Positions 1-17,500 are shown, numbered from the stretch's first letter. The stretch is DNA of 17,500 nucleotides from Candidatus Helarchaeota archaeon (GCA_029838215.1 JALGVI010000102.1:1-17500); one strand, 5' to 3'. Program-made: numbers and translations. Notes: generated from the letters alone by a model not told the origin.

Positions 1-179
1 GCGGGCTGCCCTAACTCGCGCCCCGCGCGCACGCGCGACACTTCCAAGACGCTGAACCTGCGGTGCCCGCCCGCCGTGCGAACGCAGCGTATCTTGCCCG
101 CTCGGTCCCACCTTCTTAAAGTCTTCGCGCAAACACCGAGCTCTGCCGCCGCCTGCCCTATCCTCAGCCACGAACTCAT
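1..179 (-). CDS. tnpA: IS607-family serine-recombinase transposase TnpA, N-terminal MerR-like HTH (partial, runs off the window edge; not in the ORF track)
   Basis: Manual translation of the minus strand from ATG at 179 gives MSSWLRIGQAAAELGVCAKTLRRWDRAGKIRCVRTAGGHRRFSVLEVSRVRAGRELGQP. This matches the IS607 TnpA HTH pattern (A..LGV...TLRRW...GKI...RT.GGHRRF). The catalytic domain is outside the window. Confidence 0.9.
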   Translation of the reverse strand, partial: MSSWLRIGQAAAELGVCAKTLRRWDRAGKIRCVRTAGGHRRFSVLEVSRVRAGRELGQP

Positions 180-293
180 GATGAAAAAGTACGGCGAAAG
201 TGCTAATTAAAACGCGTGTCATCACGGGAACACCGCGTGAAAAAATTTAAACGTGCAGGATTGTCCAAGTTTTACGAAGCTGATGATTAACCT
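1..293 (-). mobile_element. IS607-family insertion sequence, left end plus start of tnpA (partial)
   Basis: The 114 bp upstream of tnpA (180-293) match 17387-17500 in inverted orientation at 111/114 positions. Homology stops at an AGG junction (GG at 292-291 on the minus strand), consistent with the GG crossover dinucleotide described for IS607. Confidence 0.85.
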
Positions 294-1405
294 TTGTAGA
301 TACGACGAGCAATATGCGGTAAATCTAATGTTTGTGGAAGTTGATGATTAATATTAAAAAATTCTTGTATTTCGAGAATCGCTGCCTTTAATCCTTCCTC
401 ACCGTGATATTTATAACTTCTTTTGTCTATTTGACCAAAAACATGAACTAACATGTCGTTCCAAGAATGAATATCCTTCTGTTTCCACCGGCCATGATAA
501 ATCGAGCGGGCTATGTGCATCAGATCAGTAGTTCGTGGCATTTTTTGATGCTCAGAATAAAAAGCTCGCATATCAGAAATAGCTTCATTAAACAGACTTT
601 CATTATCAGGTTTAATCTTGTTTATTTTTCTCTTTTTCTTCTTATTCTTCCATTGAATTACTTGATCTTCTCCAAATGCTAAGATGAGTAAATCTTTCCA
701 CGATTTTACTTTTATTCTTGCAAATTGACCACGACTAAGTAAAACCGCTATTGATCTCAAGGCCATGTCATTTTTTCGTGGTTCCCGCTCATTTTCTTTG
801 TAAATGTCCTTAATTTCTTCATTGCACGTCTTAATCCATTAACACCAACGTATTTATTAGCTTCTCTGTTGATTTTTTTAAAGACATGGAGCAATAGCTC
901 ATTCCATGAATTTATGCCGTATTTCTCCCAATATCCAATAACAATTCTGCCAATAATTCGCCGCATTTCGCTTGCTTTTGGAATTCTTCCATTCTTCATT
1001 TTAAAAATCCGTAGCTCACTAGCAGCAAGCTCCAATCCAAGCTTGCCTTCATCCTTTATCTGATCTTCTAAAATTTCTTCCATTTTCGTCCCAAATAATA
1101 AATCCTTGGCTACGCGCTTGATTTTAAAGATAGGTAATTCAAATTTTTCGGCAACATCCTTTAATCGAGCCCCCATTAAATAGGACATCCTTTAATCGAG
1201 CCCCCATTAAATAGGAGATACCAGCCTTGTATCGACGTTTAAATTCACCTAGCAACTCTTCAGAATAGAGTTCGGGATAGAAAATCCTGAAATTATCAAG
1301 CGACCAGGCTGGCAACTTGAAAAATCTTCGATCTTTTAAGTCATATTTCTTTAATTCCTTAGGTTGGTAAGTATTAAATAGAGTTATTTCTCCGTTGGTT
1401 GCCAT
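287..1405 (-). pseudogene. Disrupted paralog of the transposon-associated tandem-repeat protein (6073-7623)
   Basis: ORFs 1139-1405, 757-1188 and 287-766 align consecutively to the 516-aa protein (RFFKLPAWS vs RFHKLPAWS; GKLGLELAASELRI vs GKLGLERAASELRI; FGEDQVIQW vs FREDQIKKW). Breaks: 31-bp tandem duplication at 1154-1215, a 1-bp deletion near 802-804, and IS607 truncation at ~293. Confidence 0.88.
1154..1215. repeat. Perfect 31-bp tandem duplication (ACATCCTTTAATCGAGCCCCCATTAAATAGG x2)
   Basis: Copies at 1154-1184 and 1185-1215 are identical. Removing one fuses ORF 1139-1405 with ORF 757-1188 in frame (ISYLMGARLKDV|AEKF). Confidence 0.97.
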
Positions 1406-1607: not shown

Positions 1608-3275
1608 ATGAGAATTAAAAATAAAACTTTTGTATTTATGGCAATTATCTTACTTTTTGGAAGTACATTTATTTCTGTAAGTGTTTTTTCTTCATATATT
1701 TCGGTTTTACAAATAACTTCTCAAAACGGAACAGAGGAAGAGCCAATTCTAGAAGTCCCTCCAGATTTCCTCACTTTCAATTCTACATCAGTTAATATCC
1801 TCATTCTAAAGGGAGCAAATGATTTAGAGGTCAATTCATGTGTTTCTGCACTCATTGAATCCTTGGATTTTACTATTGAAATAATACAAAGCTTTGATGA
1901 AATTCATGAAACCGAGGAAATAGATAATATTATTATTATTGGTCACGGTAATTCTGAGGAAATTATGATAAGTGAAAATCATTATACTTGGTCTGATTTT
2001 GCAAGGCTTCTTGATTCATTAATAATTTCAAAGGGTTTTAATGATTATCCTTTTGATCACTTCCCTCCCATAGTGATTGCGTCGTGTTACGCTCAAAATA
2101 TTTACAATCATACAAAATTTCCAAACTCTATTTTTGCCTGGGGAGATGGATTAATTGATGCCAAATTCATTGGTTACGTAATTAGCAGCTTGATAAATTA
2201 CGCCAATGACCAATATTCATCTTGGATGCTTAGTTTGAAAAACGGCATGGAGCGAATGATAGCCGTTGATAATGGATCTGCTTGCTTTTTACCTTTAGTT
2301 TGGATCAGACGATCTACTGCATTCATACCCAATATAATAAATTATAATAAGTTAGAGTTTCAGGTGCCTTCTGAAGAACAAGCTTCTTTTGGTTTGTTCA
2401 CAGTAAATACTCCCATAGGTCTTTATGCGCTAACGGTTGGCGGAGCTTGGGTCGCCTTAAGCTTCTGGACCGCTGGTATTGGTGCGATTGGTGGAATCCT
2501 TTTTACTGTTGCAATGATTGCTGCAGCTACTCAAATTGACTATTGGACGGCCGAATCAAATACAGCTCACGGTGGGACTCTAGTTATGGAATATATTGCG
2601 TGGGGAGCGCCAGGGTGGGGGACATTAACAATTGGTTTTGATATTGGAGGCGGTCAAGTTATAAGATTTCCAGTTTTGTGGGAACCAATATCGGTCACTA
2701 TAACCTATCTTATTTTCGGATTATTTCCCTGTGATTGGATATGGTATAATCCCTTCACGTCCACCCCTTCAATAACCAGACCAACTTCTCTCTCCTTATC
2801 GGTTGGAGCATCTGACACGATCTCTTACTCGATAACAAATCCTGATTTTATTCAACAAAATTATGTTATTTCGGTTAAAGAAGTTTCAGAACTAGGAATT
2901 GAAGAGTCTGAACAAACAATAACATTTTCTTCCTTAGAAACCAAAACTTTTGAGTTACCTATAACCGCTAACTCAATTGGAGATTACGTTGTCGAGCTGG
3001 ATGTAACTAGACTTGGTGGAGAAACATCAATAGAAATCCCGGTTTATGTTCCTGCTCCAGTTGATCAAACGCCACCTTATATTTCAATAGGAGACATTCA
3101 AGCAACGGATGCTTCACTGAATTTCTTCATTTCATCGAAAATTACGGATCTTCAAAGTGGAATTTCTAATGTCAAAGGTAAAATAATGTCTGATTCTTCT
3201 CTGCTCGAAGAAACGGTGCCCGTTCAGGTTTCTGCTGAAACAATTATGCAACTAAAGAAAAAGAGTTCCAAGTAA
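1608..3275 (+). CDS. N-terminal part of a large secreted/membrane-anchored protein: signal/TM segment, putative clan-CD (caspase/CHAT-like) peptidase domain, Gly/Ala-rich hydrophobic hairpin, first Ig-like domains
   Basis: Basic-then-hydrophobic N-terminus (MRIKNKTFVFMAIILLFGSTF). IIIIGHG (H113) and IVIASCY (C160) motifs. Hydrophobic segment at about residues 270-308. Beta-rich C-terminal part. The frame is lost near 3239-3275. Confidence 0.7.
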   Translation: MRIKNKTFVFMAIILLFGSTFISVSVFSSYISVLQITSQNGTEEEPILEVPPDFLTFNSTSVNILILKGANDLEVNSCVSALIESLDFTIEIIQSFDEIHETEEIDNIIIIGHGNSEEIMISENHYTWSDFARLLDSLIISKGFNDYPFDHFPPIVIASCYAQNIYNHTKFPNSIFAWGDGLIDAKFIGYVISSLINYANDQYSSWMLSLKNGMERMIAVDNGSACFLPLVWIRRSTAFIPNIINYNKLEFQVPSEEQASFGLFTVNTPIGLYALTVGGAWVALSFWTAGIGAIGGILFTVAMIAAATQIDYWTAESNTAHGGTLVMEYIAWGAPGWGTLTIGFDIGGGQVIRFPVLWEPISVTITYLIFGLFPCDWIWYNPFTSTPSITRPTSLSLSVGASDTISYSITNPDFIQQNYVISVKEVSELGIEESEQTITFSSLETKTFELPITANSIGDYVVELDVTRLGGETSIEIPVYVPAPVDQTPPYISIGDIQATDASLNFFISSKITDLQSGISNVKGKIMSDSSLLEETVPVQVSAETIMQLKKKSSK

Positions 3276-3394
3276 TTGATGATGATATCGCCATTCCGGT
3301 AGTTTATATAATTCCACCGACGCAAACAATAACAGACGGTGATGAGACAATTGGATTTGGCATTCACGCATTTGATCAGTCAGGAATTGAAAAA

Positions 3395-4615
3395 TTGAAG
3401 ATATTTGTGGATGAAGCTTTAATAGAAGAGCTTGATTTTACTTCTGAAGGATATCCTACTGAATTCTCGATGGAATATTCATTTTTAAATCCACAAATTC
3501 TCGGAGATCACACTATATCAATAGAAGCTTGGGATGCAGATTTGGACCGAGGTTCAATCGATCAACTTTCTGAGAGTTTCACGGGATCTTTTCAAACAAT
3601 CGACGATGACACGACAGCTCCAACAATAGAAATTGAGTATCTAGAAGGAGATGGAACCGATGGTAGTCCTGGACTATTTACTTGGGAAATAATGGATGCT
3701 GATGATGGAGTTGGGGGCGATGGAGATCTGGGATTTAGTAACATTGAGATTAAAGTTGATTATGTATCTTCCGATAATTCAGAGGATTTTACCATTTCAC
3801 TACCCGCGAGCGAAGTGGGAAGTTGGAACCTACCATCTAATTTAGGGACATATACGATAACTGTAACGGCAACGGATAATGATGACGACCGGACGTCAGA
3901 CAGTCTGACAACTACATCATTGATAAATCAAGTTATAATAGATGATGATGTCTTACAACCCGTGATTTCTGACTTGCAAATAATGGATGACTTTTTGAAT
4001 ATAGCAATTTCATTCAACGCCATAGATGATAATGCAGGAGATGACCAAGGAATCAGGGAGATAAATATCTTCATTGACAATGAGCTAGTTGTAAATTATG
4101 CTCCGACACCGATAGAAATCTCATATAATTTCGAATTATCTAATGACCGGATCATGGAGATTGGAGATCATCTGGTGAGAGTTGAAGTAACGGACGCGGA
4201 TGATGATAGGTCAATGGATTCTCTAATGACTTTAATTGAAGAATCTTTTGAAGTGACTCTCGAGGAGACCAAACAATACGTTAATTGGGAGATAGACCAC
4301 TTGAATGAGGCAATTCAAAGCTCTTCTGACGACTGTTGGAGAAACCCCGCGAGCAATCGAAAGGCAACAATGTCCGAAAAGTTAAATGAATTGAAGGTCT
4401 TAATAACGATAAACGAGTTTGAAGAAGCATATGACAAGTTGTTGCATGACATCAAGCCTAAATTAACTGGTCTAAAAACTGACGAAAATGAGGAGCCTTG
4501 GGGTGGTGGCATCTTTAATAATCCTTGGGTTACTTGCCCTGAATTACAGGAGATATTTAAATTAGATTGCAATAGAATTTTAGCTCATCTTATAGTATTA
4601 ATTTACGGAGCTTAA
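3395..4615 (+). CDS. C-terminal part of the same surface protein: acidic Ig-like repeats and a C-terminal helical domain
   Basis: This frame is open from 3239 (NNYATKEKEFQVIDDDIAIPVV...). Repeated xxIDDDxxxPxI linkers and G-x-[HY]-x6-D-x-D-x-DR-x2-3-D-x-L loops are present. One extra A at 3238-3240 would join it to 1608-3275 as a 1002-aa protein. Confidence 0.75.
   Translation: MKIFVDEALIEELDFTSEGYPTEFSMEYSFLNPQILGDHTISIEAWDADLDRGSIDQLSESFTGSFQTIDDDTTAPTIEIEYLEGDGTDGSPGLFTWEIMDADDGVGGDGDLGFSNIEIKVDYVSSDNSEDFTISLPASEVGSWNLPSNLGTYTITVTATDNDDDRTSDSLTTTSLINQVIIDDDVLQPVISDLQIMDDFLNIAISFNAIDDNAGDDQGIREINIFIDNELVVNYAPTPIEISYNFELSNDRIMEIGDHLVRVEVTDADDDRSMDSLMTLIEESFEVTLEETKQYVNWEIDHLNEAIQSSSDDCWRNPASNRKATMSEKLNELKVLITINEFEEAYDKLLHDIKPKLTGLKTDENEEPWGGGIFNNPWVTCPELQEIFKLDCNRILAHLIVLIYGA
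4452..4600 (+). repeat. Copy 1 of a 149-bp direct repeat (3' end of the surface-protein gene)
   Basis: 135/149 identical to 5470-5618 by manual alignment. Confidence 0.92.
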
Positions 4616-4807
4616 TTATTATTGATGTCTCATTGAAGAAGCTTGAAATAAAAAACGTTTTGATTTATATATTATGGAAGCATATTTTGAAAAAGAAAAT
4701 TAGTTAAAAATGTTTCACAAAGGAAAAAAAGATTTTCAAAAAAGATTCATTAATCGGAGAGGATTTTAATAAACTATAAGGTAAAAAGGAGCATTATAAT
4801 ACTGATC

Positions 4808-5023
4808 TTGACCGTGGGTGTTCCCTCTTTCACGTGGTTCTTTTTTCTGGGAATATTAAATCCATTATTTTCTGTAATGTTCGGACGTGATTTTGGTTTT
4901 TTCATATTGATGATAACATTACTTACTTATGTACTTATTGCAACTCCTATTTGCGGTCTAATCGGTTTTTTAGTTGATCGCAAGCTTAATCCTGCTAAAA
5001 AGAAAACATTTGCCAAAGACTGA
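4808..5023 (+). CDS. Small two-TM membrane protein with basic C-terminal tail (start uncertain, TTG)
   Basis: Two hydrophobic stretches and a KKK tail. The frame is open from 4754 but has no ATG. Confidence 0.5.
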   Translation: MTVGVPSFTWFFFLGILNPLFSVMFGRDFGFFILMITLLTYVLIATPICGLIGFLVDRKLNPAKKKTFAKD

Positions 5024-5182
5024 TTCCAAATGAAACAGTGAATTACCAAGAATCAAGCTAACCCGCAAAAGAAGAGAGTCCAATAATACATCTGTAATTA
5101 ATAATATTCTTTCTGAATTTAGTGATAGAGTTTCATGAAAAAAGGAGTAATATGTCTATTATTTGAAGGAAGGACAATATAA

Positions 5183-5410
5183 ATGAAAAATAAGCTGAAA
5201 AATACGATTTACATCGTTATTTTGCTTCTTCCGGCTCCATTTTTATTGCTCGTTCTGGAACCATTTTATTTTTTAATACTTGGATTAGAATTCGGTTTAA
5301 TTTTAACTATTATAACGTTTATTATAATTTATTCAATCCTCTTCATAGGTATTATGAGTCATAAGCTTTATTTCTCAAAAAAGAAAAAAGAAGGTAAAAA
5401 TCCTTTTTAA
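5183..5410 (+). CDS. Small two-TM membrane protein
   Basis: ATG start preceded by purine-rich GAAGGAAGGA. Basic N-terminus, two hydrophobic helices and a KKKKEGK tail. Confidence 0.65.
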   Translation: MKNKLKNTIYIVILLLPAPFLLLVLEPFYFLILGLEFGLILTIITFIIIYSILFIGIMSHKLYFSKKKKEGKNPF

Positions 5411-5469
5411 TCAAATAAAAAGATTATAAGTGCTTTGGATTTATTATGTGATAACGTTGTAATATGGCC

Positions 5470-5624
5470 TCAAACCTAAATTAACCGGTCTAAAAACTGA
5501 CGAAAATGAGGAGCCTTGGGGCGGTGGAGTCTTTAATAATCCTTGGGTTACTTGCCCTGAATTGCAGGAGGTATATAGATTAGATTGCAATAAATTTTTA
5601 ACTCATATCATAATATTAGGTTAG
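5470..5624 (+). pseudogene. Orphan 3' remnant (50 codons) of a paralogous surface-protein gene; copy 2 of the 149-bp repeat
   Basis: Translates as KPKLTGLKTDENEEPWGGGVFNNPWVTCPELQEVYRLDCNKILTHIIILG*. An in-frame TAA at 5460-5462 lies just upstream and there is no start codon. Confidence 0.85.
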
Positions 5625-5743
5625 GGGACATCTCAGACTAATGGTAAATCAAATAAATGCCGAATTAGACCCTTTTATAAACGCTTTAAATTTGATCTAA
5701 ATGTCAGAGAGGAATGAGTTTGCTTTAAATTTAGCAATGAGAA

Positions 5744-5947
5744 GTGGTTGGAATGAAAAGGAAAATAAAAGAAATACTCATGATCGTGATTTGGACTTAT
5801 GCTTATTGGGTCTCTTTCGTTATTATTTTCACAATATTTAATACAAATTTATTTTTATTTGGTATCCTAGTTATAATCTTAGCTTCTCTTACGATAATAA
5901 CATACATCGTGTTCAGAAAAAAGATTCTAGGTCCGAAAGAGATGTAA
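5744..5947 (+). CDS. Small two-TM membrane protein (ATG at 5753 is the likelier start)
   Basis: MKRKIKE, two hydrophobic helices and an RKK tail, the same architecture as the neighbouring small ORFs. Confidence 0.6.
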   Translation: MVGMKRKIKEILMIVIWTYAYWVSFVIIFTIFNTNLFLFGILVIILASLTIITYIVFRKKILGPKEM

Positions 5948-6072: not shown

Positions 6073-7623
6073 CTATTTAAAGGCAATCCTTAACAAATCA
6101 TTCCATTTCTTTATTCCGAATGCTGACCAATAACCCCTGTAAATACTGTTAATAATTGTAGGCATTCCTTTATCTTTCGCGCGAGGTCTTCTATGATTTT
6201 TCTTTTCAAATGCATTCAACATAACTATTGCCCTCCTAAGCCCTTCTTTACCTTTATATTGGTTTTTCATTTGATTAACTTCGTTAAAAGTGGATTGGAG
6301 TAAATCATTCCAAAGAAGAATCCCATGTTCCTTCCAATATCCTCTTTGAACAGCATGAAATATAGCACACATGTCTTTGGCGGTTGGTATCCTCCCTTTC
6401 TGATCTTGAAACTTCTTTAATTTAATTTGAGCATTAATTAATCCTTCTTCACCTAGATACTTCCCTTTTTCTTGATTCACATCTGAAAAAATGCAAAATA
6501 AAAGATCATTCCAGCATGAAATTCCGAATTTCTGCCAATTGCCATTTGAAATTGATGTAGCTATGCTAGGTAGCTCTCTTGCACGTGGTTTTCTTCGATT
6601 TTTTTTGTAAAAATCACGGATTTTTCTGGAAGCTCGGTCGAGCCCAGTAATACCAACATGCATATTTCTTTCAACATTTATTTTTTTAAAGACATAATTC
6701 AGCATTTCATTCCATGTCGTAATCCCAAAACATTTCCAATGACCCCGCCTTATTGTGTTAACGATCCAAGAGATTCCCTTATCATTCATTGAAGGTAAGC
6801 GTCTATTCTTTCTTTGGATTTCACGCAACTCTGATAAAGCTCGGTTGAAACTTTTTTTATTTGCGTGCTTTGGAGGTTTTTTCTTCAGATCTTCCCATTT
6901 TTTAATTTGGTCCTCTCTAAAAGATCTCAAGAGTAATTTTTTCCAAGTATTTATCCCAAGGTGCTTCCAAATACCGCTATATGCCGCATTAAATATGGAT
7001 TTGATTTTCTTATCTTTATAATCTGGCTTTTTGCCATTTTTCATGTAATATTCTTTTAGTTTTGTAATCGCACGGTCCAAACCTTCTATGCCATTATATT
7101 TACCGAATTCTACATTAATGCTCTTGAATACGTAGAATAGGAGGTCGTTCCATTTTGTTATACCAAAAGTCTCCCAATTACCCTCGGCAATTCTTGAAGC
7201 CACATTGCCCATCTTTCTGGCGGCTGGTATTTTTTTGAATCTCTTTTTAATTATCCTTAACTCGCTTGCTGCCCTCTCGAGTCCAAGCTTCCCTTTATAA
7301 GTTATTTGGTTTCTTAATATGTCCTCCATGCTCTTCCTAATAATGAGATCTCTTGCGAATCTCTTAATGCCGAGAGCGGTTTGTCCATATTGTCTAACAA
7401 TTTGTTTCAAGGATTTACCATTTAGGTAATCAACAGTTGCATTGAATTTTTGATTGAATTCTACAAGAACTTCAGTCGAATAAAGCTCGAAATCGGTTAG
7501 TTCATATTGATCTCCCGACCAAGCGGGTAATTTGTGGAATCTAGAATCTTTATTGGTTTCTTTTATTAGTACATGAGGCTGATAATGTGTGATAAAGTCT
7601 ATTTCAGGCTCAATTTCCGACAA
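6073..7623 (-). CDS. Basic tandem-repeat protein (N-terminal HTH-like region plus six ~67-69-aa repeats); putative DNA-binding/target-selection factor of the transposon
   Basis: Repeat consensus G..GL.RA...L..F..KN.R.P...D....I...I..G.W..FGI..WNDLL...F..IN. It loosely resembles the homing-endonuclease-associated repeat (..GR.P....FG.WN.AL). The gene lies 20 bp downstream of tnsC on the same strand. There is no TniQ-type CxxC zinc-finger pattern. Confidence 0.75.
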   Translation of the reverse strand: MSEIEPEIDFITHYQPHVLIKETNKDSRFHKLPAWSGDQYELTDFELYSTEVLVEFNQKFNATVDYLNGKSLKQIVRQYGQTALGIKRFARDLIIRKSMEDILRNQITYKGKLGLERAASELRIIKKRFKKIPAARKMGNVASRIAEGNWETFGITKWNDLLFYVFKSINVEFGKYNGIEGLDRAITKLKEYYMKNGKKPDYKDKKIKSIFNAAYSGIWKHLGINTWKKLLLRSFREDQIKKWEDLKKKPPKHANKKSFNRALSELREIQRKNRRLPSMNDKGISWIVNTIRRGHWKCFGITTWNEMLNYVFKKINVERNMHVGITGLDRASRKIRDFYKKNRRKPRARELPSIATSISNGNWQKFGISCWNDLLFCIFSDVNQEKGKYLGEEGLINAQIKLKKFQDQKGRIPTAKDMCAIFHAVQRGYWKEHGILLWNDLLQSTFNEVNQMKNQYKGKEGLRRAIVMLNAFEKKNHRRPRAKDKGMPTIINSIYRGYWSAFGIKKWNDLLRIAFK

Positions 7624-7643
7624 GAAATCACGTTCACTTATTA

Positions 7644-8654
7644 TTATTTTCTCTTTTTCTTAACCGGTTTCTGAGTTTTTGATACACGGTTCTTTACTGC
7701 AATTTTACCATTCATGATCTCATAAGTGAGATGAAATACGGTTTTATAATCCTCTTCCGTAATATTCGTCCGATTTTGTAAAAGAGCATGCACCGCACCA
7801 TACCTGACAATTTGAATTAATTTCCCCAATCGTCCTCTTGATAATTTATGTAATAACTTGGCAATTGTTGGGTTAATCTTGCCATCTTTATTTGTGAGGT
7901 CCCAGTCAGGTAGAAAATCTCCATACGCTTTGTAGATTGAGTATAACAGGTCTAGATATTCTTCATTAATTTCCCATGCTGGAAGGTTTAGTGGTCTGAA
8001 CCGTTCTTCTACCCAATCAGCCGCGTGAAATAATTCGAACGCTTCTGGCGTTCCTATAAGAATAATCCGGGTTTGGCTTTGATTAGTGAGTTTTTTAAAT
8101 CCATTGAAAATGTCTTTTTTATCTTCTAAGTCCGCTTTAATCAAATTCTGGATTTCATCAATGAAAAGGAGTCTAACTTTTCGAGATTTCAATTCTTTTA
8201 TTATCCTGTCAATTAAAACGTCCGTATGGGTGTTTCTCAACGCAGATCCATGTATTTCGATGCCAAATGTTTCCAATATAGCAGAGAACATGCGTTTAAG
8301 CGTGACACGTACCGGTGTCTCATAATATAAAATATCCCATCTAGAAAAAGGTATTCCTTCTTTTTTTGCAATGAGCTTACAATAATTCATGTACTTTATC
8401 ACCAGGGTCGTTTTTCCCGTATTAATTTCCCCTGAAATGAAAAGAGATAGTGGTCTTACTTCAGAATTAACATCGGGATTATCGTGATATTGGAGAGCTT
8501 GCAAGAATGCAACATCGATTTCATCGCAAATTTGCCTCGCTCGATTATATTCAAACCATGCTTGGTATGTAAGAATTTCTGTAGCTTGTTCGACTCGTTT
8601 TCTTCTTTCATGATCATGAGATGTAAGATCATGAATACTGGGTGCTTTAATCAT
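7644..8654 (-). CDS. tnsC: TnsC/TniB-family AAA+ ATPase
   Basis: Walker A GEINTGKT, Walker B LLFIDEIQNL, IILIGT and ERFRPLNLPAW (TniB-type RF...LP.W). Starts 3 bp after the transposase stop. Confidence 0.9.
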   Translation of the reverse strand: MIKAPSIHDLTSHDHERRKRVEQATEILTYQAWFEYNRARQICDEIDVAFLQALQYHDNPDVNSEVRPLSLFISGEINTGKTTLVIKYMNYCKLIAKKEGIPFSRWDILYYETPVRVTLKRMFSAILETFGIEIHGSALRNTHTDVLIDRIIKELKSRKVRLLFIDEIQNLIKADLEDKKDIFNGFKKLTNQSQTRIILIGTPEAFELFHAADWVEERFRPLNLPAWEINEEYLDLLYSIYKAYGDFLPDWDLTNKDGKINPTIAKLLHKLSRGRLGKLIQIVRYGAVHALLQNRTNITEEDYKTVFHLTYEIMNGKIAVKNRVSKTQKPVKKKRK

Positions 8655-8657
8655 TTT

Positions 8658-11258
8658 TTAACCTTCCATATATTCTTTACTTGGATATTTACTCGTTTCT
8701 AATCCTTTCGATTGGTATTTTTGAAAGATTTCTTCATTATTTGGTTTATCAGAATCCATTAATTCAGGTTGATATGTCTTAAAAAGTAGATCATCATATT
8801 CATCCAATTCGGAATTAATTGGAATGTTTCTTTCTTTATTCACCAAAATTTTGCTTTGAATACTTTTACGGCTACTCTCTTTTACCTTTTCTTGTTCCCT
8901 TCGGACACGTTTCGACTCCTTCTTGGCAGTGCTCACTAACTTTTCTCGTTCTAGTCTAGAATATTCTTTCCTAAAGCTATATGGCGTTAATCTGTTCTTG
9001 ACTCGAATTTTAATTGCTTGAACGTCTCTCTGCCAAGCCGACGCATAAATTGGTAAATTTCCATATGCTTCAAGTAATGTTGCTGCCCAACCGCTTGCGA
9101 GCTCAACTTTGATGGGATTATTATCGATAGGGTTAATAACCCATATATATCGAATATCTTTTCGATCTAACAATACAAATACTTTCTGTTTTTCTCCTAG
9201 GATGTTAAATATTCGTGATAATTCCTTATTATTATATTTCAGATATCGTTTGGTTATACCATCACTTCTCAGAGTACGCTTATCTTTATCAAGGGTGTCG
9301 AGATATAATAAAGCAATTTCCCGATGGTTTCGTGGCGGTTCTCTTGGTAATGGTATAATAATTTTTGAACTAGAGCATTTGATATCATCGAATTTTACAA
9401 AAGGTGCCAGAACATGGTCATCGTAAGAGTTTGTAAAATGATATTCATCAACTATCCATTTATGCAACCATTTTTCGATCTCTTGTAGGGTACAAACAGC
9501 TTCAGCTTCTGGTTTTAAATCGGGATTTTCTAGACGTTTTCGTAGTAATGGACGATATCCTGGAACTTCATCTTTTATTCCTTGACGTAAAACGTTGAAC
9601 CATTGTTCAATAAATGCTTTATAGCGGGGGGTTCTAACAGGAGCGTATTCAAGGATGATGTCGTACTTCATGCAGAACTCTTTCAAGGCTAGAGACCTAT
9701 AATCCATTCCATTATCCACCAAAATGAGAACTGGAAATCCTTGGATGGGCCATTCTTGCTCAGTCTCGTATATTTGTGTATAATTTTTCTTTGATAAGAT
9801 ACTTTGTACAAGAACTTCAAGAACAGTTTGACTCGAACTCGGCGAGAAAGAGAGATAAAACCCTGTTATCATTCGTGTATGACAATCAATGGAGGCAGTT
9901 AAATAGGGAGTGGATAATGGAAGGCGTTGCTCTGAATCTACTAGAAATACATCAAATGGCGTGTTATCAAATTGAAGGACTTGCATCGGACCAACCGCTT
10001 CTTGAAAAGAAGCAAATGAAGGAGTGAAATCTGACTTGTGAGCACGTCGACCTCGTTTATAGTAAGCGAGTTCTGAAGCTGTAGTGTTATAATTAACATA
10101 TCGACGAAATGAAGATATACTAGGTGGTGATGTTTCGGATTTCTTACATAATTTTACAAGATTGTTAAAAGCCTTCTTTAAAGTTATATTGGGTTTTAAA
10201 TATTGTTTCCGAGCTTTCTCTATCAATTCAAAAGTACTTTGATCGAACTTTTTTGGTCTTCCTGCATTTTTAAAATTTGGAACAAGACCATTAATCCCAT
10301 TTTTTTTGTATGATGAAATCCAGTAATAAAGTGTTCTTTGGGGAACCATCCATTGTTTACAGAAATTTTTTCGCCATTGTGATGTCCTCTTTTTTGAGGG
10401 TTGTTTTAACCACGCCTTCACTATCAAGTGTCGCTTCTCAACTTCTTCTTGATACTTTAGAGGAATGTTTGATGAAATTGATTTTAAAGTAGCATCTTCA
10501 AATTCTTGAGAATCAGTCGTATCCTCACTTGTTTGATCTAAAAACCAATCATATTCCTCCCATAATGGCTTAAAAGGAAATCTTTTAATCCTTGTTCTCT
10601 TTCGAATAATAGTATCTTCTGATAAACGTCTTGTAGAAAAAGTATCAACAAATACGAGTCCATGATAAATTGCATAACAAATAATTTGACTAGCTTTTCC
10701 AATTTCGACTCCTAACTCCTCAGCTAATTGAAAACACAGGAGATTATATTTCTCTCCATCTGGAGATATTAATAAAACGAGACTCTTGATATATTTATCG
10801 TTGTCAATACATTTAGATGCTCCTAAAGCATACCAAATATTCGCCATCCGAGTGGTTTTTATTTCTTTTTCGGTTATTACTGCAAATAAACAGCCATTTC
10901 GTTTTGCCCAAGATTTTGCAGCCGCGAATTTTAGCTCAAGCTCTTCATAGTTATTTAATAATGATTCTTCGTTCTTGATTTCTACTAACACACAATTTCC
11001 ATCAGAAAATTCAATATAGACATCAGGGGTGTAGCTTTTCGTTTTTCCCTTTTCATCCTTATATTCTATTTTAACTGGTTGGTGTTGATATCGTATTACA
11101 GCAGGATCATGTTCAAGTTGAAGGTAAAAATTTCGTTCGAGCTGAGATTCGTATTCGACAAATTTCTCCGGAACTTTATTTGATGGAAAAAATCCGCGAT
11201 TTCCTCGCGTCTTTGGTGGTATCTTACGGACTGAGGACCAATTTATAGACATTGCCAA
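8658..11258 (-). CDS. tnsAB: Fused TnsA endonuclease / TnsB DDE transposase (TnsAB); ATG at 11252 is an alternative start
   Basis: N-terminal TnsA motifs ESQLE, QP, YTPD and VEIK. Central HTH (QRTLYYWISSYKKNGINGL...GRP). DDE core QFDNTPFD, IDCHTRMITG, VDNGMDY, KAFIEQWF. Mu-type C-terminal region. One uninterrupted ORF. Confidence 0.92.
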   Translation of the reverse strand: MAMSINWSSVRKIPPKTRGNRGFFPSNKVPEKFVEYESQLERNFYLQLEHDPAVIRYQHQPVKIEYKDEKGKTKSYTPDVYIEFSDGNCVLVEIKNEESLLNNYEELELKFAAAKSWAKRNGCLFAVITEKEIKTTRMANIWYALGASKCIDNDKYIKSLVLLISPDGEKYNLLCFQLAEELGVEIGKASQIICYAIYHGLVFVDTFSTRRLSEDTIIRKRTRIKRFPFKPLWEEYDWFLDQTSEDTTDSQEFEDATLKSISSNIPLKYQEEVEKRHLIVKAWLKQPSKKRTSQWRKNFCKQWMVPQRTLYYWISSYKKNGINGLVPNFKNAGRPKKFDQSTFELIEKARKQYLKPNITLKKAFNNLVKLCKKSETSPPSISSFRRYVNYNTTASELAYYKRGRRAHKSDFTPSFASFQEAVGPMQVLQFDNTPFDVFLVDSEQRLPLSTPYLTASIDCHTRMITGFYLSFSPSSSQTVLEVLVQSILSKKNYTQIYETEQEWPIQGFPVLILVDNGMDYRSLALKEFCMKYDIILEYAPVRTPRYKAFIEQWFNVLRQGIKDEVPGYRPLLRKRLENPDLKPEAEAVCTLQEIEKWLHKWIVDEYHFTNSYDDHVLAPFVKFDDIKCSSSKIIIPLPREPPRNHREIALLYLDTLDKDKRTLRSDGITKRYLKYNNKELSRIFNILGEKQKVFVLLDRKDIRYIWVINPIDNNPIKVELASGWAATLLEAYGNLPIYASAWQRDVQAIKIRVKNRLTPYSFRKEYSRLEREKLVSTAKKESKRVRREQEKVKESSRKSIQSKILVNKERNIPINSELDEYDDLLFKTYQPELMDSDKPNNEEIFQKYQSKGLETSKYPSKEYMEG

Positions 11259-11455
11259 TCATTTTGATAAAAAGAAGATCGCACTATATATATGGTGCCA
11301 GACATTTTGAAATTCTTGATACATATTGCCAAACATTATGAATTTCTTTTTTCCAGAATTGTTTGGCGATAAACCAGAAGAATGATCCTCAGAACTATTT
11401 CTGCATTCCCTTCATTGCTAATCATTATGAATTTTCTCATAATGTTTTCATGCCA
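11253..11455. repeat. Candidate transposon end: six ~17-bp sites (consensus TGCCAAACATTATGAAT), putative TnsB-binding sites
   Basis: Forward: TGCCAATCATTTTGAT (11253), TGCCAGACATTTTGAAA (11296), TGCCAAACATTATGAAT (11327), TGCTAATCATTATGAAT (11416). Inverted: CGCCAAACAATTCTGGA (11368-11352) and TGAAAACATTATGAGAA (11450-11434). Confidence 0.7.
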
Positions 11456-11492
11456 TCTGTTGAGAGAGTATCTTTTAGAGAAAAGATCTTGA

Positions 11493-12464
11493 TCAAACCA
11501 GTCTTATCCAAACGGTTCTATCGTTATCCATGGGAAATTTAGAAACTCTCATGTTCTTAAATGCGTCAGGCATGATGATCTGGTAACCTTTTCCTTTTAC
11601 ACTATAAAACCCGATTTGATTGTCTAAGTTAGTTTTAAGCCTCTTAGCTTTATTCTTTATTAAATCTGAAATATCATGGTCATTTATTGCCTTATTGACC
11701 ACTTCTCCAATTGTCATGCTTGATGTATACCCCGGCCTATAAGGATCGTCAATATCGATGAAGAATTGGTCCGTTTGATTTTTATCGAGAAATATCACGA
11801 GTTTGTATCGATTTTTAGCAAGAACTTTAAGTCTTCTTTTCTCTTGAAATTTTTCCAGCTTGCTCGGATCTGATACTTCTAAATGAAATTCTATTGCATA
11901 CTCTTTATATAAATATTCGTTTTCAATAATATCTTCTAAGATTTCTTTTCCTTTATGGTTGCCCATTTTTGCGAGGATATAAGCAAGATTAATTTTTTCT
12001 CTCAATTCTTCAGTCTTATTCAATTCCTTTTCAATTACGTCCGTAACTTTTGGATTCTTAATTTTAACAAATATTTCAGCAATATTCCTTACTACTTCGT
12101 TAGAAAAAAACCAAACTTTCAACAGTTTAAGACTTGATTTAAGATTGCTTACATCTGCTATCAATGAAATCGTTTTAATGGTTTCTAAATTATTTAAACG
12201 ATATGGATTAAATGAACTTAATTTTTTATTATGTTCTATTGACAGAGCAATTAATTTCTCTGCAGTTTTATTATCTCCAAGTTTACCTAAGGCATTAAGA
12301 ATAGGTATTTGTTCTGACCTATATCCTTTTTTCATTAAGTTACGTAGCTTTTTTAAAAGCGGCTTATTAGCTTTTGGAGAGTTGAGTTGAATCAATTGAT
12401 CGCAGATTTCTTCCGTTTTGCTCCTATCAGATTGGAGTTGATTTAAAAGCTCTTTAAGATTCAT
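11493..12464 (-). CDS. HEAT (PBS-lyase-like) repeat protein with an unassigned C-terminal domain
   Basis: HEAT-like units ILNALGKLGDNKTAEKLIAL and NLAYILAKMGNHKGKEILEDII. The last ~105 aa have a distinct alpha/beta character. Confidence 0.7.
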   Translation of the reverse strand: MNLKELLNQLQSDRSKTEEICDQLIQLNSPKANKPLLKKLRNLMKKGYRSEQIPILNALGKLGDNKTAEKLIALSIEHNKKLSSFNPYRLNNLETIKTISLIADVSNLKSSLKLLKVWFFSNEVVRNIAEIFVKIKNPKVTDVIEKELNKTEELREKINLAYILAKMGNHKGKEILEDIIENEYLYKEYAIEFHLEVSDPSKLEKFQEKRRLKVLAKNRYKLVIFLDKNQTDQFFIDIDDPYRPGYTSSMTIGEVVNKAINDHDISDLIKNKAKRLKTNLDNQIGFYSVKGKGYQIIMPDAFKNMRVSKFPMDNDRTVWIRLV

Positions 12465-12468
12465 GACG

Positions 12469-12499
12469 AAAAAAAAAAAAATCTTTATTTAAGTTTTTC
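12469..12499 (-). promoter_or_regulatory. Putative archaeal BRE-TATA promoter followed by a T13 tract, upstream of the HEAT gene
   Basis: The minus strand reads GAAAAA CTTAAATA AAGA T13 CGTC ATG, with the TATA ending about 22 nt before the ATG (leaderless-type spacing). Confidence 0.45.
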
Positions 12500-12763
12500 T
12501 ATACTTCGGTCTTAGGTTAGTCCGAAATTTTAGTTACGGCTTAAATCTGTTTCAATAAATCTAGATTTAGCCAAAAATTCATTAAACAGAAAAAGTCGGC
12601 AAGAAATGATCCGCTCTGAATTTCTGACCTACCCAAATTCTTGTTTATATAAAAAACATGATTTTTCGAAATATTTGTCGATAAATCGCATGGCTGGTCT
12701 ATATTATTGCCTGATTACTAAAAGACTTGATAATCTTTTTAAAGAAGTTTTAAATCGTTTTAA

Positions 12764-13087
12764 ATGATGAATAAAAACCAAACAAAAACCCTGATTTGTG
12801 TTCTAACGGCAGGATTATTCTTCATTCCTTCGGTTATCTTTGATTTATGGTTTCTCATTCCAATTGGAGCCATATTTGATTGGTTGCCTTTGCCGATGGG
12901 ATGGATGAAAGGTGAAGAAAAAACAGAACGAAAGAAAAATTTAATCATAATCCATGCCATAATCACCGTGATAGCTTATATTTTCGCAATCATTTGGATT
13001 TTTACGCTGATATGGATTTATAAGTTCTTATTTTTGGAAATCTGGTGGGCGGCGGTCATAATTGGAGTATTCTTGATTGGAAAATGA
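12764..13087 (+). CDS. Hypothetical multi-pass membrane protein
   Basis: 107 aa with about 3-4 hydrophobic segments and a charged loop (KGEEKTERKK). Confidence 0.7.
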   Translation: MMNKNQTKTLICVLTAGLFFIPSVIFDLWFLIPIGAIFDWLPLPMGWMKGEEKTERKKNLIIIHAIITVIAYIFAIIWIFTLIWIYKFLFLEIWWAAVIIGVFLIGK

Positions 13088-13099
13088 GGAAAATTTGCT

Positions 13100-13930
13100 C
13101 TAAGCCTTACCGCGGCGTGCATCTTCTTTCTTTTGAATCTCTTCATATGGGTCGTGGTAGAATGATAAATAATATTTTGCTGCCAGTTCATCCAGATCCC
13201 AATATTCTCCCTGCAGGGATTGGATGCTTGCAAAGACTCGCTTTGCGTTTTCCGTGAATCCGCTTGAAGTTATGATGTAGGCATAGTCAATGCCGTATCT
13301 GCTTGCGAATTTTGAGAATTCTTCAATTGTTTCTTGGTCGACCAGCTTGTTGAAGTAATGAATTCCTTGTATGAATATACGATTTCCGAAGATTTGTTGA
13401 ATTCTCAGTTTTTCTTGCGTGTAATCTGCGATGCGGAATCCCTTTTCGAACAATACATCGGCAATGGGAAGGAATTTGAAATTATTTTTTTCAAAAAATC
13501 GTTCGATTATGTCCATGAAGCCCGATTGGTCAACAGACAAGATCCAGTTCTTGATCTCTTCCGTTCGAGTCCTAAAATCTTTATAATCTTTTTCTTGCAG
13601 GAATATTTGATATTTATAATTTAATAACTTGATTTGTTGCTGTAAATACCTAAAACTCGTTTCATAATTTTCTTTACTGATGGTATTTGACTCTCTTTTC
13701 TTTTCAAGTTGATCTAGTCCTTCGCTCAATCGCAAGATTCGAAGTTGGAAATCTTTTTCAGATTGAATGACGAATCCTTCGACTTTTAGTTCGGTTATTT
13801 TAAACTGATTTGATTTTTGCTCCGCCTCATTTGGTACAATTTTTACTTCCTTTTCAGTTTCATCTTTCTCGTCTTGTTGTTCGGCTTGTTTTTCTTTTTT
13901 CCATTCCGGAAACATGATATCGCGAACCAT
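13100..13930 (-). CDS. Charged/coiled-coil N-terminus plus C-terminal Mrr-like (type IV restriction endonuclease fold) domain, apparently degenerate
   Basis: The C-terminal pattern IFIQGIHY...VDQETIEEF...YAYIITSSGFTENAK...WDLDEL matches the Mrr_cat tail (xQxK...v....v.ef...iT.s.FT..A...d...L). The catalytic Lys position reads Ile. Confidence 0.6.
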   Translation of the reverse strand: MVRDIMFPEWKKEKQAEQQDEKDETEKEVKIVPNEAEQKSNQFKITELKVEGFVIQSEKDFQLRILRLSEGLDQLEKKRESNTISKENYETSFRYLQQQIKLLNYKYQIFLQEKDYKDFRTRTEEIKNWILSVDQSGFMDIIERFFEKNNFKFLPIADVLFEKGFRIADYTQEKLRIQQIFGNRIFIQGIHYFNKLVDQETIEEFSKFASRYGIDYAYIITSSGFTENAKRVFASIQSLQGEYWDLDELAAKYYLSFYHDPYEEIQKKEDARRGKA

Positions 13931-14375
13931 CCGTCAATTTCTTTTTAGAATTTCGTCGAAAGTCGTCATTTATATCTGATCCGTCGTCGTATTTATAATT
14001 AATTATAAAAAGACGTCTTGTTTTTATTCGCGGCTAAAGAAAAAATGGTTCAGAAGCAAGGATCTGAACATGTTGTCTATTTAAAATAAAAATGAGTCTT
14101 GAATTTAATTACATTCCAAATGAAAACTGAAATTCGGATGAATAGTCAAGACCGCTGAAGTAGACGGAAATACTGGAAATAATGAGCACGACGATTAATA
14201 TGCTTATACAAACGAGAAAAATGAATGACATTTTTTCGTAAAAGGTCGGTGGGTCTGGTATTTCGTCAAAAGGATCCCTTGACATCTGATTTCACCTGAT
14301 TTAAAAAAGTTTAAAACCTTACTATATAATTTTTCTAAAGATTGCTATTAAAGTTTTTTACAAATTCGATTGAAA

Positions 14376-15245
14376 ATGCCCAAGTTGAAGAGAATGAAGT
14401 TTGCGAAAGTCCACGGAATTGGTAATGATTTTATTTTAATAAATAATATTGAGGAGCGTATTTCAATAGAGCGTTTTCCTGAATTAGCCCGTAGGTTTTG
14501 CAGGCGTAATTTCTCTATTGGTGCAGATGGGATTCTCGTTTTGGAAAATTCACGGGGTGCAGATTTCAGGATGCTAATTTTTAATTCTGACGGTTCCGAA
14601 GCGGAGATGTGTGGGAATGGTATTCGTTGCATTGCCATGTATTGCCATGAAAAAGGTCTCACGGACAAGCAAGAGTTAGAAATCGAGACGCTTGCAGGAA
14701 TTATCAAGCCAAGAATTAACATCAACGAAAAGAATCAAGTTTCCGGGATCACGGTTGACATGGGCAAAGCAGAACTGACCAGAAGTAAGATTCCCATGGT
14801 CGGTCCTGATGAACCCGTTGTATCTGAAGATTTTGATCTCAATGGAACCGTTTTTAAAATTACAGCTGTTTCCATGGGCAATCCTCACTGCGTGATTTTC
14901 GTAGATGACCTTTCTACCTTCAACACGTGGAAGGAATTTGGAGCAAGGATCGAAGTTGATGCCAGATTTCCACAGCGCGTGAACGTGGAATTTGTCCAAA
15001 TCGAGTCGCCTAGCAATGTTAAAGTGAACGTTTGGGAACGCGGTGCAGGTGCTACACTAGCGTGTGGAACGGGTGCCTGTGCAGTAGTTGTTGCTTTAGT
15101 GTTAAATCGAAAGGCAAAGAAGGGTGATGAGATCACCGTATCCTTACCCGGAGGCGATTTAAAGATAACATGGGCTCTCGATGAGCATGTATACATGACC
15201 GGACCTGCTGAGTTTGTATTTGAGGCGGAAATTAATCATGATTGA
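14376..15245 (+). CDS. dapF: Diaminopimelate epimerase
   Basis: Signature motifs HGIGNDF, EAEMCGNGIRC, SMGNPHCV, NVEFV and WERGAGATLACGTGACA. ATG at 14376 chosen over the TTG at 14370. Confidence 0.97.
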   Translation: MPKLKRMKFAKVHGIGNDFILINNIEERISIERFPELARRFCRRNFSIGADGILVLENSRGADFRMLIFNSDGSEAEMCGNGIRCIAMYCHEKGLTDKQELEIETLAGIIKPRININEKNQVSGITVDMGKAELTRSKIPMVGPDEPVVSEDFDLNGTVFKITAVSMGNPHCVIFVDDLSTFNTWKEFGARIEVDARFPQRVNVEFVQIESPSNVKVNVWERGAGATLACGTGACAVVVALVLNRKAKKGDEITVSLPGGDLKITWALDEHVYMTGPAEFVFEAEINHD

Positions 15246-17386: not shown

Positions 17387-17500
17387 AGGTTAATCATCAG
17401 CTTCGTAAAACTTGGACAATCCTGCACGTTTAAATTTTTTCACGCGGTGTTCCCGTGATGACACGCGCTTTAATTAGCACTTTCGCCGCCCTTTTTCATC
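17387..17500 (+). mobile_element. Second IS607-family left end (inverted relative to the copy at 180-293); tnpA expected to start just beyond the window
   Basis: 111/114 identity to the reverse complement of 180-293. Begins at AGGTTAATCATC and ends exactly where the ATG follows in the other copy. Confidence 0.85.

Follow-up and report, generated by a model that had tools for sequence, protein, structure and literature searches.

An Asgard Tn7-family transposon, found in the genome of Candidatus Helarchaeota archaeon, carries no TniQ core; directly behind tnsC it encodes a tandem-repeat protein of 516 aa (P0003, selector candidate 1), and this arrangement points to a mode of insertion-site choice that has not been described before. 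Within the Tn7 family, TniQ is regarded as the hallmark of targeting and as its universal hub, and this view extends to the CRISPR-guided forms employed in genome engineering. From its sequence, P0003 is best described as a selector of the TnsD kind in which the TniQ core has been replaced by a segment of about 47 aa. We infer DNA binding, contact with TnsC and a role as selectors for P0003 and related repeat proteins from comparison with other Asgard elements.

Organization and ends of the element

The window, a stretch of 17,500 nucleotides, holds a Tn7-family operon on the minus strand between 6073 and 11439 (Table 1). The three ORFs described in an earlier note on this DNA were borne out (8658-11258 for tnsAB, the other two as tabulated), with gaps of 3 bp between tnsAB and tnsC and of 20 bp between tnsC and the 516-aa gene. 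The tnsAB ORF opens at a TTG (11258; 866 aa); translation probably begins at the ATG at 11252, and the resulting 864 aa match the sister record and the family consensus (MSIDW).

Table 1. Features of the element and adjoining DNA, in positions of the window.
Feature	Position	Strand	Basis or description
Right end	11249-11439	-	Terminus 5'-TGAGAAAA at 11439 and four direct TnsB-type sites
Right-end TnsB-type sites	11412-11436, 11323-11347, 11292-11316, 11249-11273	-	Direct repeats of ~20 bp
tnsAB (fused TnsA endonuclease and TnsB DDE transposase)	8658-11252	-	Pfam domains and conserved catalytic residues
tnsC (AAA+ adaptor ATPase, 336 aa)	7644-8654	-	TniB (PF05621), 1.2e-27
Selector candidate 1 (P0003, 516 aa)	6073-7623	-	N-terminus 1-47, linker about 50-106, repeats 100-515
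Cargo	1608-5947	+	Opposite strand to the tns genes
Three small hydrophobic cargo ORFs	4808-5023, 5183-5410, 5744-5947	+	After the Big_7 ORFs
Selector candidate 2, broken in this assembly	288-1405	-	Intact 382-aa gene in the sister contig
GC-rich multi-copy element	1-287		Interrupts selector 2 and ends the contig

A TnsA-type PD-(D/E)xK endonuclease, a TnsB DDE transposase and a TnsC/TniB AAA+ regulator, three components that mark the Tn7 family, are present. Pfam searches place Tn7_TnsA-like_N (PF08722, 1.6e-18) at residues 51-130 of TnsAB and HTH, rve and Mu-transpos_C domains within residues 304-709; the rve match, at 28.6 bits, lies under its cut-off of 32.6, and that to Mu-transpos_C scores 22.3 against a cut-off of 21.7. 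When 27 relatives were aligned, no substitution was seen at E37, D431, D515 or E551, and few or none at D79, E93 and K95. Relatives of TnsAB form 75 clusters, and those with a named source are all Asgard, with one weak exception. Both nucleotide-binding motifs of TnsC are intact (Walker A, GEINTGKT, at residue 75; Walker B, LLFIDEI, at residue 162).

The best explanation of the locus is a Tn7-family transposon of Asgard archaea of about 11.4 kb. A sister contig (L055), 99.9% identical and with all genes intact, contains the whole ~11.4-kb element with both ends; reading from the right end, tnsAB, tnsC, selector 1, cargo and selector 2 follow one another up to the left end, the last being taken from the sister contig. 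The limits proposed earlier need revision: the end given as 11455 is close to the right terminus, which we place at 11439, and the edge at 6073 does not hold, as cargo and then the broken second repeat-protein gene lie beyond it.

Three of the four right-end sites fit the 18-bp consensus TTCATAATGNTTGGCAAT with two mismatches or fewer; the chance expectation for such sites, with up to three mismatches allowed, is 0.17. A matrix built from the four scores them at 22-27, the next best site in the window reaching 16.6, and the right-end layout is identical in the relatives L052 and L053. A scan with this matrix found no left end in the window (nothing above 16.6), and the left-end region is absent from the assembly of the source genome; it is seen only in the sister contig, where three inverted sites and the terminus TGTTAATT follow selector 2. 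A metagenome contig has a 12-nt indel exactly behind 11439, and in this variant AGAAT stands 2 nt outside the right terminus; AGAAT flanks the left terminus of the sister contig too. The window contains no clean 5-bp target duplication, and the only sequencing run that covered a small share of the window gave no empty site. A single apparent joint of 7025 to 11343 has a 21-nt side with 85% likeness and is probably a repeat artifact. The gene P0004, which lies upstream of the right end with its stop codon 54 bp from the right terminus, was considered as a glmS-like attachment gene and dropped; it has no homologue in 40 relatives, in 400 Asgard genomes or upstream of related elements, and no conserved attachment gene was found.

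The cargo gene for an Ig-like (Big_7) surface protein is split into ORFs of 555 and 406 aa in the window and forms one uninterrupted reading frame of 1030 aa in the sister contig. Selector 2 has suffered a 31-bp tandem duplication (1154-1215), a 1-nt indel and loss of its 3' end at 288 to the multi-copy element. The latter is probably an insertion sequence; further copies terminate contigs C11 and C72 and lie within C25 and C112, and an inverted one occupies 17387-17500 of the window. With both selector 2 and the cargo gene disrupted in this assembly, the window copy of the transposon may be decaying.

The repeat protein and the TniQ core

The 47-aa N-terminus of P0003 is acidic (pI 4.7) and is followed by a four-helix linker and by six three-helix repeats of 67-77 aa each (100-166, 167-235, 236-312, 313-379, 380-446 and 447-515), which together have a pI of 10.3 and a net charge of +53. 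AlphaFold predicts disorder for residues 1-40 and a confident three-helix bundle for every repeat. Homologues share the N-terminal motif F..Y.P..L...D.RF.K..AWS...Y.L..PE.YS ahead of the helical linker. The most variable positions of the repeat arrays fall in and around helix 2, and the arrays may read DNA module by module.

No family in Pfam or NCBIfam reaches its curated cut-off in P0003. Foldseek searches of the PDB with the full model and with one repeat returned nothing at E up to 0.001, and a profile search of PDB sequences with the N-terminal alignment gave no match. A wide structural search yielded Z scores of at most 4.3, the best matches being mostly TetR-type HTH DNA-binding domains at a weak Z of 3.3-4.0. 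The homing endonuclease associated repeat of Pfam (PF18780, HNH_repeat) scores 30-63 bits in relatives with repeat arrays (P0033 63, P0037 42.5, P0016 39.7 and P0018 39; gathering cut-off 26 bits), and matches neither P0003 at E below 0.1 nor any single unit; its profile has 54 positions, compared with about 68 aa in the units of P0003. Members of the repeat-array family also occur away from tns genes, for example in a defense island (P0043), and can be joined to other domains, methyltransferases among them (P0071), so the array is a general module and not one specific to Tn7.

The defining core of TniQ/TnsD spans about 300 aa and comprises Hel1, a zinc finger, a connector and Hel2 (PMC10293859). 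P0003 lacks the N-terminal Hel1 and zinc-finger part of this core, and only the segment that follows the Pfam TniQ domain has a counterpart in it. Neither Pfam nor NCBIfam matches P0003 to TniQ (PF06527). When the N-terminal alignment was compared by hhalign with 14 Asgard TniQ N-halves, the linker alone matched (A2 45-134 to A3 279-382) and the Cys/His zinc core of TniQ had no counterpart; the alignment of Asgard TniQ proteins shows no variation at C150, C153, C174, H177, C185, C188, C217 or C220, and residues 1-110 of P0003 contain no Cys. Two possibilities raised at the outset, that the N-terminus is a divergent TniQ and that a tniQ lies elsewhere, thus found no support in these searches or in the wider ones. 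An Asgard TniQ profile, which detected TniQ in 21 related loci as positive controls, had as its sole match in the whole 94%-complete genome a TFS/RpoM-like zinc ribbon, and no tniQ was found in the sister contig as far as the left end. The TniQ/TnsD signature protein of the Tn7 family is accordingly missing from the element. ORF domain scans together with array and Rfam searches confirmed that the window has no TniQ, cas gene or CRISPR-like array, and they showed no tRNA or Rfam match; no cas domain that would mark a CRISPR-associated transposon occurs in the scanned window ORFs or in the called genes of the sister element.

The repeat protein is nevertheless akin to TniQ selectors. Residues 43-104 of P0003 align to 297-358 of a TniQ protein in L001, and TniQ is joined to a linker and repeats of the P0003 type within one protein in other Asgard Tn7 elements (P0019, P0033, P0061, P0089 and the L042 protein). 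Linker and repeats are therefore homologous to the C-terminal extension of TniQ/TnsD selectors, presumably the DNA-binding part. The earlier description of a repeat protein "instead of TniQ" stands in that the TniQ core is gone, and has to be qualified in that the protein is not unrelated to TniQ, given its homology with the C-terminal portion of proteins that join TniQ to repeats.

Co-inheritance of tnsC and the selector candidates

A lack of linkage between homologues and tnsBC, named at the outset as telling against the proposal, was not observed: a TniQ-less protein with the same N-terminus directly follows tnsC in at least seven other distinct elements (L006, L020/L053, L051, L052, L023, L034 and L056). 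Such loci often carry two paralogues of the selector candidate. The same slot is occupied by TniQ/TnsD in 21 related loci. The proteins of L023 and L034 keep the N-terminal region despite a different C-terminal domain, and a leave-out profile recovers the L023 protein at E 2e-5; a TFIIB-cyclin-like fold suspected by eye in these C-terminal domains had no Pfam match. L034, of ~5.3 kb (about 9663-14965) with three inverted site copies on each side, contains just tnsAB, tnsC and a 420-aa protein with a P0003-type N-terminal region; no further non-overlapping ORF lies between its ends, whose exact termini and target duplication could not be fixed.

An unrooted tree of TnsC split all nine TniQ-less rows from the 18 others with support of 99/99; among these 18 rows, 16 have a TniQ profile match, L026 has a minimal TniQ and L013 could not be assigned. 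The window TnsC is 52-61% identical to those of TniQ-less partners and 20-30% identical to those of TniQ partners, while for TnsAB the corresponding ranges are 44-59% and 45-55%. The similarity of TnsAB to both groups, not shared by TnsC, implies that tnsC is passed on together with the selector, as a single module.

Co-folding of TnsC with residues 1-110 of P0003 gave a score of 0.57 (runs 0.57, 0.61 and 0.48), the best of three controls scoring 0.00; at least 94% of contacts agreed between runs, and the pLDDT of the partner was 80 or above. Of 80 solved complexes 58 attain the pass mark, as do 2 of 110 mismatched pairs, and scores of 0.60 or under belong to just 7 of the 80 solved complexes and to both passing mismatches, so that the model lends weak support to a contact between TnsC and the N-terminal region.

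Proposed mode of target selection and its alternatives

We propose, as a reading with reasonable probability, that targets are chosen without a TniQ core, the repeat proteins binding DNA and passing the site directly to TnsC. DNA binding by P0003 and by its 382-aa paralogue near the left end would rest on a basic array whose three-helix modules loosely recall HTH domains; the conserved N-terminal region, which would sit where TniQ has Hel1 and its zinc-finger core, would hand the target site directly to TnsC; and the fused TnsAB, called in by TnsC, would cut at the TG termini and so lead to insertion of the element. More tentatively, and with slightly less than an even chance, these proteins may represent a second, TniQ-independent class of Tn7 selectors, in which a short TnsC-docking N-terminus is combined with interchangeable DNA-binding parts (arrays of 4-11 basic repeats with three helices each, or the different domains seen in L023 and L034) and has co-evolved with a dedicated branch of TnsC, the tnsC-selector cassette moving between transposase backbones. 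If the N-terminal region of ~100 residues (47-aa segment and linker) can replace the TniQ core in bringing in TnsC, it would constitute a new TnsC interface, would show that transposase backbones exchange tnsC and selector as a cassette, and would offer a compact handle for linking other DNA-binding arrays to the transposase.

The repeat protein might bind target DNA and yet depend on an unrecognized host protein, or a small adaptor of the element, to bridge it to TnsC. Separate DNA-binding selectors normally act via the TniQ hub, as TnsF does in Tn6022 (PMC10293859), and the co-fold argues only weakly for direct contact. We consider such an adaptor unlikely, however, as the minimal L034 leaves no further non-overlapping ORF to encode it, the genome has no TniQ-like ORF, and the TnsC branch co-varies strictly with the N-terminal region, for which direct contact is the simplest account.

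The innermost right-end site overlaps the tnsAB start codon, which makes regulation at this end plausible, and repeat-array proteins exist outside tns operons, joined to methyltransferases as in P0071; the protein could accordingly be a regulator, such as an end repressor, or a DNA-binding protein of the cargo, with TnsABC inserting with little or no targeting. This is rather improbable for a gene that holds the post-tnsC slot used by TniQ/TnsD in related loci, whose linker and repeats are homologous to part of the TniQ fusions, and whose N-terminal region is kept where the C-terminal domain differs. That these are decaying elements, immobile since a deletion removed the TniQ core, would fit the lesions in selector 2 and the cargo gene and the locus L036, which has tnsAB and tnsC and no selector, but is very improbable given that at least eight distinct elements, sharing just 44-60% identity, have this architecture with intact ORFs and conserved catalytic residues, that the sister contig is intact from end to end, and that the N-terminal region is conserved, unlike a random deletion product.

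TnsE of Tn7 is the one known selector that works through TnsC despite lacking a TniQ domain. TnsE accompanies TnsD/TniQ and does not replace it (PMC10293859), whereas the window element has no TniQ at all, and Pfam and NCBIfam show no sequence similarity between TnsE and P0003.

Tn7-family elements of Asgard archaea have been described as Clade X, in Helarchaeota and Promethearchaeia (Thesier, Hsieh, Schargel, Wingo, Peters, bioRxiv 2025, 10.1101/2025.07.27.667033). They resemble the window element in having a fused tnsAB followed by tnsC, in their host phylum, in the terminus (TGA in the Helarchaeota element; TGAGAAAA at the right end in the window) and, as we presume for the window, in selectors whose DNA-binding modules derive from the host domain. 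All were found by PF06527 and carry TniQ, whereas the window element has no TniQ core and a different selector N-terminus, and its TnsC stands apart from those of the TniQ-bearing relatives found here by the low identity given above. The suggestion of an undescribed archaeal branch is thus too broad for the fused-TnsAB, TGA-end lineage, which was already known, and applies to the TniQ-less form, which that survey, the one made of archaeal Tn7 elements, could not detect because it was anchored on TniQ (10.1101/2025.07.27.667033). On comparative evidence, this form adds to the mobile elements known from Asgard archaea.

The gene for TnsD or long TniQ in bacterial Tn7-like elements directly follows tnsC, as that for P0003 does; the C-terminus of TnsD consists of HTH domains and that of P0003 of small helical modules, both presumed to read the attachment site (PMC10293859). 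Paralogue pairs are frequent both among these bacterial selectors and in loci of the P0003 type (PMC10293859).

Operon organization and the search for a TniQ core

The element is a real Tn7-family transposon; its archaeal kind has been described before, its selector arrangement has not. In the Helarchaeota-like Asgard genome from which the 17.5-kb contig derives (94% complete), three closely spaced genes on the minus strand of the window encode TnsAB, TnsC and the repeat protein P0003. ORF coordinates and Pfam assignments bear out the operon of fused tnsAB, tnsC and a 516-aa repeat protein described in the earlier note. The likely start of tnsAB is the ATG at 11252, giving a protein of 864 aa. 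Its endonuclease residues E37, D79, E93 and K95 and its DDE residues D431, D515 and E551 show no or almost no variation across an alignment of 27 relatives. P0003 comprises an N-terminal part of about 100 residues followed by six repeats of 67–77 aa each.

Features of the window and its flanks
Feature	Coordinates	Strand	Description
GC-rich multi-copy element	1-287 and 17387-17500		inverted orientation, both contig ends
Inverted repeat	180-293 / 17387-17500		
Candidate selector 2 gene, damaged	288-1405	-	31-bp tandem duplication, 1-nt indel, cut at 288
Tandem duplication in selector 2	1154-1215		exact 31 bp, ACATCCTTTAATCGAGCCCCCATTAAATAGG twice
Ig-like cargo gene	1608-4615		Big_7, faint; 555- and 406-aa ORFs
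Direct repeat	4438-4608 and 5456-5626		171 nt, 87% identical
Small hydrophobic ORFs	4808-5023, 5183-5410, 5744-5947		three, 67-75 aa
P0003 (candidate selector 1), 516 aa	6073-7623	-	no family reaching curated cut-off (Pfam, NCBIfam)
tnsC	7644-8654	-	TnsC/TniB match 1.2e-27; Walker motifs intact
tnsAB (TnsA-TnsB fusion)	8658-11258	-	Tn7_TnsA-like_N 1.6e-18, HTH domains, rve core, Mu-transposase C-terminal domain (Pfam)
Right-end repeats	11249-11436		four direct, about 20 bp
TG outside right-end repeats	11439		TGAGAAAA
Genes just outside right end	11493-13930 region		323-aa orphan protein, weak HEAT-repeat match; Mrr_cat restriction endonuclease (7e-8)
dapF	14370-15245		

TniQ is known as a modular hub, with TnsD-like proteins carrying long C-terminal multi-HTH extensions, and the accessory selectors TnsE and TnsF accompany it (Faure et al., 2023, PMC10293859). 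A survey of 13,858 archaeal assemblies that used PF06527 only has described archaeal Tn7 elements, among them Asgard representatives with a fused tnsAB, ends in TGA and TniQs bearing C2H2 zinc fingers; in that work we found no mention of TniQ-less elements or of repeat arrays of the P0003 type (Thesier et al., 2025, 10.1101/2025.07.27.667033).

P0003 has no Pfam or NCBIfam match to TniQ. The collected Asgard TniQ proteins have invariant Cys/His columns, and residues 1–110 of P0003 contain no cysteine at all. To look for a divergent TniQ at the N-terminus, the family's N-terminal alignment was compared, profile against profile, with the N-halves of 14 Asgard TniQ proteins. Only positions 45–134 aligned, to 279–382 (E 8e-4, probability 24%), which is the part after the TniQ domain; the TniQ core itself gave no alignment to the N-terminal region of the family. 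A profile built from the collected Asgard proteins, which recovers TniQ in 21 related loci, matched only a TFS/RpoM-type zinc ribbon in a six-frame translation of the whole genome. There is likewise no tniQ between the element ends in L055, a 99.9% identical sister contig, and the small cargo ORFs encode hydrophobic peptides. The lack of TniQ noted earlier from the window is thus confirmed, as is the absence of cas genes and CRISPR arrays; a scan of the window also found no tRNAs or Rfam matches.

Inheritance of the candidate selector with TnsC

Related loci were gathered via TnsAB, TnsC and the repeat protein. A TniQ protein directly follows tnsC in 21 of them. A partner with the window-type N-terminal region and no TniQ takes this position in the window and in L006, L020/L053, L051, L052, L023, L034 and L056, so that the linkage of homologues to tnsC holds. 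These TniQ-less loci often carry two tandem paralogues after tnsC. The L023 and L034 proteins keep the window-type N-terminal region and differ in their C-terminal part; a profile made without either still matches L023 (E 2e-5), while the likeness of L034 to L023 was judged by eye only. In L034, three site copies stand opposite three inverted copies, with only tnsAB, tnsC and a gene for a 420-aa protein between them, and this looks like a complete element of about 5.3 kb. In L056 tnsA and tnsB are separate genes, and tnsC and the selector are of the window type.

In the TnsC tree a split supported at 99/99 separates all nine TniQ-less rows from the 18 others, which comprise 16 rows with a TniQ profile match, L026 with its minimal TniQ, and L013, in which the third gene is without assignment. 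The window TnsAB is equally near both groups (45–55% identity to TniQ-type partners versus 44–59% to TniQ-less ones), whereas its TnsC is near the TniQ-less group only (52–61% versus 20–30% for TniQ-type partners). This implies that tnsC and the selector travel as a cassette, as would be expected if the two proteins touch. The TniQ-less clade is rare among species representatives, occurring in 2 of 400 Asgard genomes, and metagenomes supply about 20 TnsC clusters.

Several further loci were noted. The L026 third gene (4365–5192) encodes a 275-aa protein in which a minimal TniQ-like N-terminus (PxPxxGES motif) precedes four or five zinc fingers of the C2H2 type; it has no Pfam TniQ match and fits the zinc-finger TniQs of Thesier et al. 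In the Heimdallarchaeota locus L018/L048 (3331–5933), a 428-aa TnsC, placed on a long branch with the TniQ-less side, is followed by a 433-aa protein of five repeats that lacks both a TniQ domain and the N-terminal motif of the window protein. L034 (9617–9631) and L023 (about 95–115), which have the same third-gene type, share the sequence CCATTCCCGTA(C/T)TTTT upstream of tnsAB; this looks like a left-end site in inverted orientation, and may have been left behind by a neighbouring element or belong to a shared target. In the window's own genome no other tns genes were found; contig C136 carries, near its high-coordinate end (~20.8–21.0 kb), a solitary 86-aa fragment of the window-type N-terminal selector region (profile E 1e-10) that ends abruptly in GC-rich sequence.

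The repeat protein and its predicted contact with TnsC

The P0003 family comprises about 215 representative clusters, and all members with a named source are Asgard. True fusions of TniQ to repeats of this type occur in P0019 (TniQ 5.9e-15), P0033, P0061, P0089 and the L042 protein; P0033, with TniQ at 9e-14 and 11 repeats, is the best match of P0003. Residues 43–104 of P0003 align with 297–358 of the TniQ protein in L001, the linker between TniQ domain and repeats. Elsewhere in the family, the array is joined to a methyltransferase domain (P0071) or encoded in defence islands without tns genes, indicating that the array is a general module which in Tn7 elements serves as the C-terminal part of the selector. 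The Pfam HNH_repeat cut-off is passed by some relatives, at scores of up to 63 bits, but by neither P0003 nor single units.

An AlphaFold model of P0003 (pLDDT 86) has residues 1–40 disordered, a four-helix unit at 50–106 and one three-helix bundle per repeat. A single repeat, predicted at pLDDT 90, has weak PDB matches (Z at most 4.3), mostly to TetR-type HTH domains. The repeat region is basic (pI 10.3, net +53) and residues 1–47 are acidic (pI 4.7). Variation among repeat positions is greatest in and around helix 2. The candidate selector is a TnsD-like repeat array without the TniQ core; it has a conserved new N-terminus and is inherited with its own TnsC branch.

Co-folding of TnsC with P0003 1–110 scored 0.57 (runs 0.57, 0.61 and 0.48; best control 0.00), which is weak support, as calibration shows that passes of 0.60 or less are wrong in most cases unless the two proteins were likely partners beforehand. 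Contacts agreed between runs to at least 94%, with partner pLDDT of at least 80. The best-supported reading, to which we give a modest preference, is that P0003 would select targets by direct contact with TnsC, the selector role proposed in the earlier note.

Ends, decay and surroundings of the element

The right-end repeats lie directly upstream of tnsAB, the innermost overlapping its start codon, a layout common to the relatives L052 and L053. Three of the four differ from the 18-bp consensus TTCATAATGNTTGGCAAT at no more than two positions; the chance expectation for such sites is 0.17 at up to three mismatches. We take the TG eight bases outside the outermost site as the right terminus. 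A site scan found no left end in the window. In L055, the 516-aa gene is followed by the gene for an Ig-like surface protein of 1030 aa, on the opposite strand, then by a second repeat protein of the same type (382 aa) and a left end of three inverted copies of the right-end site, its terminus TGTTAATT also eight bases outside the core. L055 thus shows the rest of the element, giving a length of about 11.4 kb. The right junction is also present in an independent sediment metagenome, where 12 additional bases follow immediately behind 11439. Among them is AGAAT, the pentamer that also borders the left terminus in L055; this suggests a 5-bp target duplication, with a 2-nt offset left over.

The window copy shows signs of decay in selector 2 and cargo. 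The duplication in selector 2 shifts the reading frame and is not in L055, and the gene is cut by the GC-rich element, probably an insertion sequence. The cargo gene, split in the window, is a single 1030-aa gene in L055, and the two assemblies also differ there by a 75-nt indel. The direct repeat and the small hydrophobic ORFs lie in the stretch that separates the cargo gene from selector 1.

No attachment gene could be named, and the orphan protein outside the right end has no homologue in 400 Asgard genomes. The left flank in L055 holds a GIY-YIG gene, a D12 methyltransferase and an Eco57I-like gene; together with Mrr_cat, these place the element in a variable, defence-like island adjoining dapF. 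The terminal inverted repeat arises because the GC-rich element sits at both contig ends. Contigs C11 and C72 carry further copies at their ends, and C25 and C112 also contain copies. Its frame opens with a MerR/excisionase-like HTH peptide, and by eye only it is IS607-like.
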